Notes under the pieces: generated by a model
What the model saw: the letters and a program-made list of their open reading frames with translations, nothing else
What the model was told of the DNA's origin: nothing
The model's database searches: none
In this document: positions 10,766-18,206 of the stretch, in pieces
Position numbering within the stretch: position 1 is the stretch's first letter
How the letters are laid out: each line of letters begins with the position of its first letter
From: Escherichia coli
Lineage (GTDB): Bacteria; Pseudomonadota; Gammaproteobacteria; Enterobacterales; Enterobacteriaceae
Reading direction: 5' to 3' (one strand)
DNA length: 64,000 nt
NCBI RefSeq assembly: GCF_046105845.1
Contig: NZ_CP151004.1
Translations under genes and position numbers: made by a program

Positions 10766-11935
10766 TCAGGCGGTTTCTCTTGCTGTCACTACGCCATTTT
10801 GCGCAGCCCACAGATTCACATCTTCCTTACGAATGGCGGCGGCCATCATGCCGGGGAATAAATCTGGGGTACAGGCAAAGGAGGGAATACCCATGGCGGC
10901 GAGTTTTCCTGCCAGTGACCGGTCGTAAAACGGCGCACCTTCATCGCTTAAGGCCAGCAGGGTAACCACCTGTACGCCGGACTGAATCAACTCACTGGCG
11001 CGTTGCAACAGATTGCGTTCCACCCCGCCTTCGTAGAGGTCGGAAATCAGCACCAGAATGGTATTGCGCGGATCGCGAATCAAAGACTGGCAGTAGCCCA
11101 CCGCGCGGTTGATGTCGGTGCCGCCACCCAGCTGTACGCCAAACAGCAGCTCTACCGGATCGTCGAGCTTCTCTGTCATATCAACGACTGCGGTGTCGAA
11201 AACCACCAGATGCGTTTTTACCGCCGGGAGCGATGCCATTACTGCGCCAAAAATACTGGAATAGACCACCGAGGAGGCCATCGACCCACTCTGGTCGATA
11301 CATAAAATGATCTCCTTTTGCGTGCGTTGAGACTTGCGCCCGTAGCCGATCAGCGTTTCAGGAACAATACTTTTATACTCTTCCTGCCAGTGGCGCAGGT
11401 TGGCGCGAATGGTGCGCTGCCAGTCAATTTCCGCGTGGCGCGGGCGACGATTACGTACCGCACGATTAAGAGCGCCGCTTACCGCGCTACGCATTGGCTC
11501 TTCAAGCTGTTTCATCAATTGCTCGACAACTTTACGCACCACAAGCCTGGCGGTTTCTTTGGTTTTGGCCGGAATTACGCCATTCAGCGACATCAGCGTG
11601 GAGACCAGATGAACATCAGGCTGGACGTTTGCCAGCATCTCTGGCTCCAGCAGCATACTGTGCAAATTAAGACGTTCAAAGGCGTCTTTTTGCATCACCT
11701 GAACCACAGAAGAAGGGAAATACTGGCGAATATCACCCAGCCAGCGAGCGACTTTGGGTGACGATCCACCCGTGCCGCCGCGTAATCCATGTTTACCGTC
11801 TGGCTGATAGAGCGCCGCCAGCGCGGCATCAATCGCGGACTCTCTGGCATCCAGCGCCACGTTACAGGCATTGTCGGCATCTTCTCCAAGGATCAGACGC
11901 CAGCGGCGCAGCCGTTCCATTTCGTTACTCGACAT
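10766..11935 (-). CDS. VWA-domain protein with MIDAS motif (CoxE-like)
   Basis: 389 aa; DxSxS motif in ILCIDQSGSMASS and downstream VLISDLYEGG; N-terminal RWRLILGE typical of CoxE-type VWA proteins; AGGGA SD upstream; 11-nt overlap with upstream gene. Confidence 0.8.
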   Translation of the reverse strand: MSSNEMERLRRWRLILGEDADNACNVALDARESAIDAALAALYQPDGKHGLRGGTGGSSPKVARWLGDIRQYFPSSVVQVMQKDAFERLNLHSMLLEPEMLANVQPDVHLVSTLMSLNGVIPAKTKETARLVVRKVVEQLMKQLEEPMRSAVSGALNRAVRNRRPRHAEIDWQRTIRANLRHWQEEYKSIVPETLIGYGRKSQRTQKEIILCIDQSGSMASSVVYSSIFGAVMASLPAVKTHLVVFDTAVVDMTEKLDDPVELLFGVQLGGGTDINRAVGYCQSLIRDPRNTILVLISDLYEGGVERNLLQRASELIQSGVQVVTLLALSDEGAPFYDRSLAGKLAAMGIPSFACTPDLFPGMMAAAIRKEDVNLWAAQNGVVTARETA

Positions 11936-16887: not shown

Positions 16888-18206
16888 TGTGCGCCTCCGG
16901 TTGCCCAAATCACGCTACCGGCAAGCCAGGCGCTACAGGGCGTCAGTTGCTGACCGTCCCATTCCCCCATTAGCATAAACGGCGCGCCGCCGCTGGCAGC
17001 CAGTAACCGCCAACCCTCGTCCGATGACAGGAGCGTCGGTAAGTGCTGGCCCTGTGTCGAGACGAATCGCCAGCCGCTCTCGTGCGGGTAAATCAATATT
17101 TCGCTTACTCGCAGCGGCAGAGGCCATTGCCAGGGATTCGCGCTAAGCCGCTGCGCCATGTCATGCAGCGCGTCCGGGAGGGGTAATTCTGCAAGCGGGA
17201 ATCTTTCACCGCGGGTAAACGGCTCCACAACCCGCGCCCGTAGCGGTGATGCGCCAGGGAAAAAGGCAAGCGCGCCCTGGCAGACTTGCCCGGTGATAAA
17301 GTGCTGGGGAAAGTTTTTACCACCGTGTGAATAGTCCAGCAGTAGCGCGGTGCGGTGGCTCTTTTCTCCGTACAACCAGACCCGGCGTCGCCACAGATTA
17401 TTCTCTTCTTGCGCGCTTTGACCTAAGATCTGCCAGTTATCGAGGCAGGTTAATCCGTCAGTGACGTCGTGTTTTTCCGGGGGTATTCCCAATGCCGCAT
17501 GGAGATCGCTAAGTTGTGCCGGGGATAACATTTGTTGCTGGCGCCAGGCGTCAATAATCAGCTGTAGCTGCCCCAGTTCTTTGCACAGGCTCGATGGCCA
17601 TACCTCGGCGGTAGTAAAAAGAGTGGTCAGATTGTTCAGGCGAGCGGCAATTCCCGGTAGTTGGGCGTCGACCATGCGGGCGGCGATCCCGGCAAAAGGC
17701 AACTGTTGTGCAGAGATCTGCGCCAGACCGTGGCGGATCAGGTCGTGCATCCACTGTTCGAGGAAATCCAGCCCCGCCGTCATTTTTTGGTTACGTGCCG
17801 CTTCCCGTTTGGCGGCAGCCTGCGGGTCGGCAGCTTTTGCCTCAGCCTGCTCTTTCTTCTCTTCTTTGTGAACCGCCCGCTGCTGGCGCGAGGTTAGCCA
17901 CTCGCTTACCCATTCCGGCGGCTCGCCAGCGGTGAAACTTGCGGTGTGTTGCACCTGGAGCAAAAGCAACGCAAGGCTATGTTTACAGGGGAATTTACGG
18001 CTGGGGCAGGAACATTTACAGGCCAGATCCTGTCTGTCGATTCGTACCTGATAAGGGCGGGAGCCGCTACCTTTACACTCTCCCCAGAAGGCGGTCTCGC
18101 TATATCCCAGCGTCGGCCATTTTGCGGGGGCAACCAGGCCACGAGCCGCTTTAACCGAGGCGTCATCGGGCGCCAGGGCTTGCACTGATTCAACGGTCAG
18201 TTCCAT
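16884..18206 (-). CDS. SWIM zinc-finger domain protein
   Basis: 440 aa; SWIM-type CxCxnCxH signature in ACKCSCPSRKFPCKH near N-terminus; Lys/Glu/Ala-rich linker; C-terminal domain unknown. Confidence 0.75.
   Translation of the reverse strand: MELTVESVQALAPDDASVKAARGLVAPAKWPTLGYSETAFWGECKGSGSRPYQVRIDRQDLACKCSCPSRKFPCKHSLALLLLQVQHTASFTAGEPPEWVSEWLTSRQQRAVHKEEKKEQAEAKAADPQAAAKREAARNQKMTAGLDFLEQWMHDLIRHGLAQISAQQLPFAGIAARMVDAQLPGIAARLNNLTTLFTTAEVWPSSLCKELGQLQLIIDAWRQQQMLSPAQLSDLHAALGIPPEKHDVTDGLTCLDNWQILGQSAQEENNLWRRRVWLYGEKSHRTALLLDYSHGGKNFPQHFITGQVCQGALAFFPGASPLRARVVEPFTRGERFPLAELPLPDALHDMAQRLSANPWQWPLPLRVSEILIYPHESGWRFVSTQGQHLPTLLSSDEGWRLLAASGGAPFMLMGEWDGQQLTPCSAWLAGSVIWATGGAQ

Follow-up and report, generated by a model that had tools for sequence, protein, structure and literature searches.

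A five-gene operon on the minus strand at positions 10766-18206 of a 64,000-nt stretch of Escherichia coli DNA (contig NZ_CP151004.1; the whole stretch is referred to as the window) encodes, in this order, a SWIM zinc-finger protein, a DUF5691 protein, a YehL-type MoxR AAA+ ATPase, a DUF5682 protein and a VWA protein with a metal ion-dependent adhesion site (MIDAS). We found that this operon is an accessory and laterally mobile cassette, and that its raised G+C content, which a preliminary description of this DNA saw as consistent with horizontal acquisition from a high-GC donor, is a trait of the cassette family found in most hosts. The operon is probably an old accessory cassette, the GC content of which is driven mainly by its proteins and which would work by a MoxR-VWA switch mechanism.

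The gene order around the cassette is rplM-rpsI-sspAB-dcuD-nanRATEK-nanQ ... gltD-gltB-yhcC-arcB. Since the open reading frames (ORFs) overlap by 4, 4 and 11 nt, with a single 17-nt gap, the layout is that of a translationally coupled operon. The gene families were assigned by Pfam (SWIM, DUF5691, AAA_5, DUF5682 and VWA_CoxE), which reported nothing further. The genes are as follows:

16884-18206, minus strand: gene 1, SWIM zinc-finger protein, 440 aa, with a SWIM module at its N terminus, a helical middle and a C-terminal half rich in beta structure
15283-16887, minus strand: gene 2, DUF5691 protein, 534 aa (also 534 aa in public contigs; Pfam DUF5691, E 4.5e-121); its start ATG overlaps the SWIM gene stop codon (ATGA)
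14192-15286, minus strand: gene 3, MoxR-class AAA+ ATPase of the YehL type, 364 aa (Pfam AAA_5); its start ATG overlaps the DUF5691 stop codon (ATGA)
11925-14174, minus strand: gene 4, DUF5682 protein, YehM-like, 749 aa, with an N-terminal alpha/beta domain and a long helical-repeat C-terminal part
10766-11935, minus strand: gene 5, VWA protein, CoxE-/YehP-like, 389 aa (Pfam VWA_CoxE, E 3.6e-52), with an 11-nt overlap with the end of the DUF5682 gene

Base composition of the operon

The operon is 57.7% G+C (single genes 55.4%-59.5%) compared to 51.65% in the rest of the window. The preliminary description had put it at about 60%, which is too high; its sample count of 38 G+C in 60 nt at 12001-12060 was confirmed, and the adjacent 9830-10200 stretch, said to be near 40%, is 38.5% G+C. 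The sliding-window check that it proposed indeed showed the operon to be the GC-richest 7,441-bp stretch in the window, where non-overlapping windows have a mean of 51.3% (standard deviation 1.3, maximum 55.3%). The GC of the five operon genes was 0.573, compared to 0.523 for the 45 other genes of the window (Mann-Whitney p 5e-5), and their GC at third codon positions (GC3) was 0.622, compared to 0.556 (p 4e-4). As a group, the operon genes were raised in GC, GC1, GC2 and GC3 alike (p 5e-5 to 0.013).

The tetranucleotide signature of the operon is typical of E. coli and not an outlier, its z-score correlation with the rest of the window being 0.753, compared to 0.718 ± 0.048 for 19 same-size core segments. 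Similarly, the pooled codon-usage distance of the operon to the core set (0.100) was below that of gltD..yhcC (0.115), with only a few single codons being atypical. Neither of these checks, both of which had been proposed as tests of a foreign origin, bore that origin out. The coding GC exceeds that of the core set by 4.8 points, of which 3.4 are due to amino-acid composition, as obtained by translating the operon proteins with the host's own codon usage, and 1.4 to codon choice. About 70% of the coding GC excess is therefore a matter of amino-acid composition, the operon proteins being rich in Leu, Ala, Trp, Pro, Gln and Arg and poor in Ile, Lys, Phe and Tyr. The earlier remark that third positions are GC-rich was correct, but they account for the smaller part of the excess. 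Among single codons, CCC makes up 29% of the Pro codons in the operon compared to 6-8% in core genes, CGG 14% of the Arg codons compared to 3-5%, and CGT 18% of the Arg codons compared to 43-48% (Fisher p about 1e-4 to 7e-14); GCC is also raised, and GGT is lowered.

The flanking core genes had been described as being near 50% G+C, which holds only for the wider window (51.65%), the adjacent blocks nanT-nanQ and gltD-gltB reaching 55.6% and 56.7%. The excess could thus be a regional effect, with the operon sharing in a GC-rich neighbourhood (~6,000-24,400, 55-59% G+C) and in a bias common to nanTEK and gltBD. In line with this, nanE (58.1%), nanK (57.9%) and gltB (57.1%) overlap the range of the operon genes, and the GC3 of gltB (0.657) is above that of four of the five operon genes. 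However, the high GC is reached by three different routes: in gltBD through codon choice (+3.3 points, with the preferred codons CTG, CCG, ACC and ATC), which is the opposite of the pattern in the operon, in nanTEK through amino-acid composition (+3.9 points), and in the operon mostly through amino acids together with rare GC-rich codons. Moreover, a low-GC segment (9751-10220) lies inside the same neighbourhood, and the cassette keeps a positive offset in unrelated hosts and at other loci. A regional effect is therefore quite improbable.

In 26 loci from other hosts, the G+C content of the cassette averages 4.4 points above that of its own flanks and follows the flank GC closely (r = 0.93). 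Thus, the cassette and its flanks are 49% and 43% G+C in Bacteroides intestinalis, 56% and 46% in Alistipes, 69% and 64% in Allochromatium, and 57.6% and 54.9% in Klebsiella huaxiensis (+2.7), while two other enterobacterial loci have cassettes of 60.0% and 58.0% in flanks of 55.1% and 53.3% (+4.9 and +4.7). The positive offset is consistent with the amino-acid composition of the proteins. In summary, since the offset is family-wide and the excess mostly protein-driven, the composition is not the unameliorated signature of a recent high-GC donor. In itself, the composition finding is ordinary, but it calls for caution, as a 6-point GC excess with GC-rich third positions mimicked a foreign signature, and, taken alone, the GC offset would give both a wrong date and a wrong source for this island.

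A stronger compositional outlier than the operon lies elsewhere in the window. The most deviant gene by composition is that at 57261-58919 on the plus strand (42.8% G+C, GC3 0.425), in a region (56500-58950) where 1-kb windows go as low as 38% G+C. This ORF belongs to the phosphoethanolamine-transferase family (EptA/CptA-like), although under the NCBIfam cut-offs, and lies ~0.4 kb downstream of a tRNA-Leu gene.

Relatives and age of the cassette

Relatives were sought first by scanning one genome per species and then among clusters at 90% identity. All five genes, with their order unchanged, were found in at least nine phyla, the hosts comprising Chromatiaceae, Pseudomonas oryzagri, Aquabacterium, Mailhella, Verrucomicrobiota, Thermoanaerobaculia, Chloroflexota, Planctomycetia, Obscuribacterales and Bacteroidales. 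The architecture was invariant in more than 25 loci, and clustering of the flanking ORFs from more than 25 loci revealed no conserved neighbour gene. In the locus of a Propionibacteriaceae metagenome-assembled genome (MAG), the SWIM match was weak and ~7 kb away, and DUF5691 was not detected. Across the loci, identity to the E. coli protein was 62-83% for the ATPase (70-83% save for the two most distant loci), 52-80% for the VWA protein, 37-58% for DUF5682, 26-48% for the SWIM protein and 26-38% for DUF5691.

In the cluster search, DUF5682 was 76% identical in K. huaxiensis, 65-66% in an Enterobacteriaceae MAG and Superficieibacter electus, 64% in a bacterium (locus L049) the gene neighbours of which may resemble those of Gammaproteobacteria, and 58% in Bilophila; outside the enterobacterial/L049 clade, the best identity was about 58-61%. 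In K. huaxiensis, the order is gltB-gltD-[same five genes]-nanQKETAR-sspBA-rpsI-rplM, the whole neighbourhood being collinear with the window. Between E. coli and K. huaxiensis, the number of synonymous substitutions per site (dS) was 1.08-1.29 for the five cassette genes, and for the flanking orthologues it was 0.87 (gltB), 0.89 (gltD), 1.26 (nanE), 1.29 (sspB), 1.45 (nanT) and 1.74 (nanA). At 94%, the ATPase shows an identity between the two species like that of GltB and GltD. Its number of nonsynonymous substitutions per site (dN) was 0.03, compared to 0.22-0.33 for the SWIM and DUF5691 proteins, DUF5691 (0.33) being the fastest-evolving component.

A neighbour-joining tree was built from four cassette proteins (1,912 columns, 300 bootstraps); the yeh proteins, at only 32% identity, served as a distant outgroup in the concatenated tree. 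Bootstrap support was 100% each for E. coli with K. huaxiensis, for the Enterobacteriaceae, for the Enterobacteriaceae with L049, and for these with Mailhella, and 83% for the group of Enterobacteriaceae, L049, Mailhella, Chromatiaceae and Pseudomonas. The closest sampled relatives outside the enterobacterial/L049 clade (Mailhella, Chromatiaceae and Pseudomonas oryzagri) have loci of 62-70% G+C. Because of the K. huaxiensis sister, the flank-like dS, the fully supported clade and a divergence within E. coli of up to 6%, the lineage is old in the Enterobacteriaceae and its import not recent. The best explanation is that it has been resident in this family for about as long as the split between Escherichia and Klebsiella, and was lost, replaced or exchanged in most lineages.

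The recent acquisition by E. coli from a high-GC donor, with GC and GC3 as an unameliorated donor signature, is thus already largely refuted and in our judgement highly improbable. It would account for the operon being the richest 7.4-kb stretch (57.7% compared to 51.65%), for the enrichment of codons rare in E. coli (CCC, CGG, CGA, CTA and GGA), for the rarity of the cassette in this species, and for nearest relatives outside the enterobacterial/L049 clade at 62-70% G+C. However, it is at odds with a sister copy in the same neighbourhood in K. huaxiensis that is as diverged synonymously as the flanking orthologues, with the monophyly of the enterobacterial copies and an intra-E. coli divergence of 0.3-6%, with the typical tetranucleotide signature, and with an excess that is ~70% amino-acid composition and shows the same offset in most hosts. 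Nor was there a close plasmid or phage copy, nor were there mobility genes or border repeats, and outside the enterobacterial/L049 clade DUF5682 identity does not go beyond about 58-61%. As the sister groups are at 62-70% G+C, the enterobacterial lineage may well derive, at a deeper level, from an organism richer in GC, but this event lies far back and is not demonstrated by composition. Of the earlier proposal of a high-GC donor, this much is left; the GC content itself matches that of core neighbours.

Several observations count against simple vertical descent or against a GC excess due to the proteins alone. There is a genuine synonymous component in the GC excess (CCC and CGG raised; Fisher p 1e-4 to 1e-9). 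The junctions differ between the two species, remnants of yhcG lying between gltD and the cassette in K. huaxiensis, but yhcG between the cassette and nanQ in E. coli. In Superficieibacter-like relatives, the cassette sits elsewhere, at ygjQ|ygjR. Vertical descent would require very many losses, and the timing is coarse because dS values of 1.1-1.3 are close to saturation. Both ancient residence with many losses and old exchanges among enterics at a hot spot would fit these data.

Three further observations concern the relatives themselves. In Alistipes putredinis, Bacteroides sp. 43_108 and Bacteroides gallinarum (loci L025, L026 and L027), a 12.4-kb segment with the cassette (~1785-14144) is 99.7% identical at the nucleotide level; it spans two families, with a cassette of 56% G+C in flanks of 46-47%. 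This looks like a recent inter-genus transfer of the kind that the preliminary description proposed for E. coli. In L049 and L050, the DUF5682 and VWA genes are separated by an inserted gene of the rhomboid family (203 aa; 12256-12867). A Superficieibacter-like contig (L048) carries a second MoxR-type module ~1 kb upstream of the cassette (1097-4993), consisting of an AAA_3 ATPase, a DUF2201 VWA-like protein and a protein with a faint LRV-repeat match, and a small DUF1871-like gene and a DUF218 gene lie between this module and the cassette.

Distribution in E. coli and the gltD-nanQ slot

The cassette is present in 33 of 5,426 complete E. coli genomes (0.6%), always on the chromosome and always between gltD and yhcG, and the carrier copies of the 7.6-kb operon are 97.5-98.2% identical to the window. 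Between lineages, its genes diverge by 0.3-6% (up to 6% in DUF5691), and the flanking gltD by 4%. Comparison with an empty site in strain 2015C-3905 (locus L007) by BLAST against the window defined the accessory segment, to which the following features belong or adjoin:

10700-18438: whole accessory segment, 7,739 bp
18207-18438, minus strand: upstream intergenic region, 232 bp, with a gltD terminator-like hairpin, a candidate sigma-70 promoter and a ~110-nt leader with conserved blocks
10730-10758, minus strand: terminator-like hairpin 3' of the VWA stop codon, GGCCGGA-TACGCCCGC-TCCGGCC followed by TTTTTT, as read from the sequence
10221-10687, minus strand: yhcG 5' remnant (YhcG residues 1-105 and 120-135; ORF 10218-10574; Pfam DUF1016_N) and upstream region
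9751-10220, minus strand: segment of only 36-39% G+C, found in place of the 3' two-thirds of yhcG and without homology to intact yhcG loci

At the empty site, 58 unrelated bp lie between gltD and the yhcG upstream region, and the left flank is the same as in the window. A repeat search of the window found no direct repeats flanking the segment borders. There is no tRNA gene near the borders, the nearest being 38 kb off, and there is no integrase or transposase among the five cassette products. A search for vectors of the cassette found no close copy on plasmids or phages, the best plasmid copy being 46% identical and a single contig of the phage collection 29.5%. Among the hallmarks of genomic islands, sporadic presence and an empty site are thus seen, while integrase, tRNA gene and repeats are absent and the arrival is not recent. 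Hence, the horizontal acquisition suggested earlier stands as the accessory and laterally mobile nature of the cassette, and it does so by comparative evidence (33/5,426 genomes, a clean 7.7-kb segment and at least nine phyla), not by composition. A recent arrival is not supported, the E. coli copy falling within the Enterobacteriaceae clade.

Upstream of the operon, the gltD terminator-like hairpin is an inverted repeat at 18428-18396. The candidate promoter consists of a -35 TTGTTT (18349-18344), an 18-nt spacer and a -10 TATACT (18325-18320). A simple promoter scan did not report this TTGTTT/TATACT site, so that the operon promoter in the 232-bp spacer is only inferred. Conservation with K. 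huaxiensis covers the TATACT box, a TGTTAYGGAAAACAG...CTGCTTTG..TAACGCC block and the start region. Neither the island nor its leader had a match in Rfam, and the folding of the leader was unremarkable (z 0.37). At the other end, the hairpin at 10730-10758 was missed by the terminator scan because its loop is 9 nt. With a promoter region and a terminator of its own, the cassette appears to be self-contained. The 232-bp spacer (18207-18438) is 100% identical in the window, SMS-3-5 and N96, whereas the adjoining SWIM gene differs by 1.4-2.1% and gltD by ~4.2%; this invariant spacer may be an operator or a recombination joint.

The gltD-yhcG/nanQ slot is multi-allelic and highly variable, with at least four alleles in E. 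coli. The K-12 allele (gltF-yhcADEF) is found in 1,148 genomes, and an allele with the low-GC orf101 segment seen at 9751-10220 in 725 of 5,426. The operon lies beside an intact yhcG in strain N96 and beside a smaller yhcG remnant in SMS-3-5. In the window, the remnant was mapped by tblastn with K-12 YhcG and by blastn against K-12 and N96, and its product (DUF1016/PDDEXK nuclease) matches the PADLOC phage-defence candidate PDC-S02 (E 2e-30). The mosaic left flank that had been suspected is therefore real, being composed of the yhcG 5' remnant and the unrelated 470-bp segment of 36-39% G+C. This segment holds a 101-aa ORF (9825-10130, minus strand) with the RefSeq name 'transposase' (WP_000639208.1), for which NCBIfam, PADLOC and PHROG gave no match.

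Around the cassette, yhcG is intact, truncated or fragmented in E. coli and K. huaxiensis, and it seems to be a focus of rearrangement in the slot. An insertion of the cassette into yhcG was considered and rejected, since the yhcG parts flanking it in both species are in the wrong order for a simple insertion. The core genes gltD and gltB (18439-24438) are 3-5% divergent between E. coli lineages at this neighbourhood, while in the rpoN(-kdsD) region, at a distance of 10 kb, identity to the best matches is 99.6%, and 4,445 of 5,425 genomes reach 99% or more; the window thus belongs to E. coli in the strict sense. The core alleles on either side of the hypervariable slot appear to be unusually diverged, as they would be with old haplotypes kept or exchanged by recombination, and the slot offers a natural setting well suited to the study of gene replacement at a fixed locus. 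Because of a 5-bp deletion in the ATPase gene of two E. coli draft assemblies (L003 and L006, 8894-9983), which causes a frameshift at codon 196 and leaves the gene split or uncalled, and of a ~300-bp gap in the operon of the complete genomes H62 and H63, the cassette is decaying in some strains.

Component proteins, proposed mechanism and known systems

In the ATPase, the Walker A motif GVPGTAKS is intact, as read from the translation, and the AAA_5-type domain conforms to GxxGxxK[ST]. In pairwise comparison, it is 41% identical to YehL over 350 residues (E 1e-78), and its matches to MadB (9e-12), GvpN (1.6e-6) and NorQ (5e-6) are far weaker. Among PDB sequences, it matched midasin (1e-15) and NorQ (5e-6). 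The VWA protein, the gene of which lies in the same operon, has an intact MIDAS motif (D214-Q-S-G-S218, conforming to DxSxS); alone, it gave no match in the PDB sequence search, nor did profiles of the DUF5682 and SWIM proteins. NCBIfam, PADLOC and PHROGs gave no informative family for the SWIM, DUF5691, DUF5682 or VWA proteins.

The invariant residues of DUF5682 are G10xxH13H14, E37, E151, R171, R186-E187 and C209-G210xxH213, and its predicted N-terminal domain is alpha/beta with the parallel beta-sheet core common to TraB, ChaN and Ere. The two best local hhalign alignments of DUF5682 with YbaP, a TraB-family protein of E. coli, land in register on GSIH...VE and RN..W...GALH, although with E values (0.26-0.34) that are not significant and a shallow YbaP alignment, its members being 65-82% identical to YbaP. 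Enzymes of the TIKI superfamily use two His, two Glu and a basic residue (PMC6254334). The N-terminal domain of DUF5682 may thus keep a His/Glu/Arg motif set like that of the TraB/TIKI superfamily hydrolases. For the SWIM protein, the top match of the structural model was ZSWIM8, with weaker OB/HIN/SSB matches, and in the model it appears to carry OB-like domains. The only match of DUF5691 was a non-significant one to HEAT repeats (i-E 1.5), and we take it to be a helical protein.

Of the seven MoxR subfamilies, one is named after YehL, and VWA proteins serve as the cofactors of MoxR proteins (PMC3893208); in the general mode that has been proposed, a peptide is caught by the VWA domain and then let go by MoxR in remodelled form (PMC7159879). 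By analogy with other MoxR-VWA pairs, the cassette ATPase would form a ring that grips and remodels a partner via the MIDAS site of the VWA protein. The partner is likely to be DUF5682, the TraB/TIKI-like site of which would be gated. The SWIM protein and the presumably helical DUF5691, both fast-evolving, could be the subunits that recognize a ligand or substrate, and, depending on this ligand, ATP hydrolysis would turn a hydrolase or a binding activity on or off. We therefore put forward, tentatively and as one of several possibilities, an undescribed five-component ATP-driven switch, in which SWIM/OB and DUF5691 sense a nucleic acid or protein ligand and the MoxR ring unlocks a TIKI/TraB-like DUF5682 via VWA/MIDAS. 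If true, such a switch would form a new class among regulated protease or esterase machines, with a possible role in defence or in the response to stress, and a function could then be assigned to K-12 yehLMPQ as well.

This mechanism has to contend with the lack of a canonical Walker B (hhhhDE) in the ATPase, which has IARVEE where YehL has IVRFEE; the Glu-Glu at this Walker-B-like position is a subfamily-wide variant. Pfam PF01963 (TraB_PrgY_gumN) matched neither the DUF5682 query nor 29 family members, and the link between DUF5682 and TraB is not significant by sequence (hhalign E 0.26-0.34), nor by Foldseek (whole-chain E > 0.07). In addition, the ATPase gene is frameshifted in some E. coli strains, so that the cassette is dispensable. 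No paper in the searched literature mentions DUF5682 or DUF5691; searches for yehLMPQ gave gene lists only, and a search for DUF4132/SWIM/WGR returned irrelevant papers.

Two other functions were weighed against the five-component switch. The cassette could be an anti-phage or conflict system, with a MoxR-VWA trigger and a TIKI-like DUF5682 effector in a defence-island-like hot spot. The slot is indeed hypervariable and adjoins yhcG (PADLOC candidate PDC-S02), the taxonomic distribution is patchy, with an inter-genus transfer between Alistipes and Bacteroides (99.7% over 12.4 kb), the SWIM and DUF5691 proteins evolve fast (dN 0.22-0.33), and MoxR-vWA ternary conflict systems exist (PMC7159879). 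However, none of the five proteins had a significant match in PADLOC-DB 2.0, the ATPase giving only weak ATPase-motif matches to IetA (E 0.0015-0.003). Moreover, the architecture is rigid, whereas conflict systems typically exchange their effectors, and the defining third components of the described ternary systems are missing. The cassette had no conserved neighbours, and an ATPase that is 62-83% identical across phyla resembles a conserved cellular machine; a role in conflict is hence doubtful. The same conservation of the core proteins would suit a classical MoxR-VWA maturation chaperone for an enzyme encoded elsewhere, with DUF5682, DUF5691 and SWIM as adaptors. The VWA protein is of the CoxE type, the ATPase matches NorQ, and MoxR proteins have been described as maturation factors (PMC3893208), but, unlike in nor, cox and cbb, there is no conserved client gene beside the cassette in more than 25 loci from many phyla, and the cassette is dispensable and rare within the species. 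We consider such a chaperone unlikely.

Among known systems, the TraB/PrgY/GumN-TIKI-ChaN-erythromycin esterase superfamily has no significant sequence-profile match to the N-terminal domain of DUF5682, which in the cassette is fused to ~500 residues of helical repeats within a MoxR-VWA operon, a context undescribed for the TraB/TIKI superfamily. The MoxR-vWA ternary conflict systems (Kaur et al. 2020, PMC7159879) likewise combine a core with conserved partners, a mobile neighbourhood and a patchy taxonomy; neither SWIM nor YehL is mentioned there. The cassette lacks their third components VMAP, iSTAND, FtsH and beta-propeller, and its VWA protein (389 aa) is VWA only, with no variable effector domains. 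Judging by these protein sequences, the cassette is not one of the described ternary systems. NorQ/NorD, CoxD/CoxE, CbbQ/CbbO and RavA/ViaA, like the cassette, have an AAA_5/MoxR ATPase beside a VWA/MIDAS protein, and the mode expected of such pairs is the remodelling of a client held via the MIDAS site (PMC3893208; PMC7159879). Unlike the NorQ/NorD-type pairs, the cassette has no client enzyme nearby, is always accompanied by SWIM, DUF5691 and DUF5682, and has a Glu-Glu at the Walker-B-like position.

The closest counterpart in E. coli itself is the K-12 operon yehL-yehM-yehP-yehQ, which has the same core order of ATPase, DUF5682-type and VWA proteins, a SWIM-finger protein being found in both operons. 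The yeh operon is widespread in E. coli, compared to 0.6% of genomes for the cassette. Alongside the ATPase, DUF5682 is 27% identical to YehM (E 1e-41) and the VWA protein 37% identical to YehP (E 2e-80). The cassette begins with its SWIM protein (440 aa), whereas the yeh operon ends with YehQ (614 aa), and outside the finger the two showed no similarity (BLASTP E 0.9; hhalign E 0.13); DUF5691 showed no homology to YehI or YehQ by hhalign. In summary, sequence comparison indicates that the core of the cassette is paralogous to K-12 yehL/yehM/yehP and that the cassette is an uncharacterised variant of the YehL-type MoxR-VWA module. For this rigidly conserved five-gene machine, the fold-level link between DUF5682 and TraB/TIKI gives a testable handle on both the cassette and yehLMPQ.

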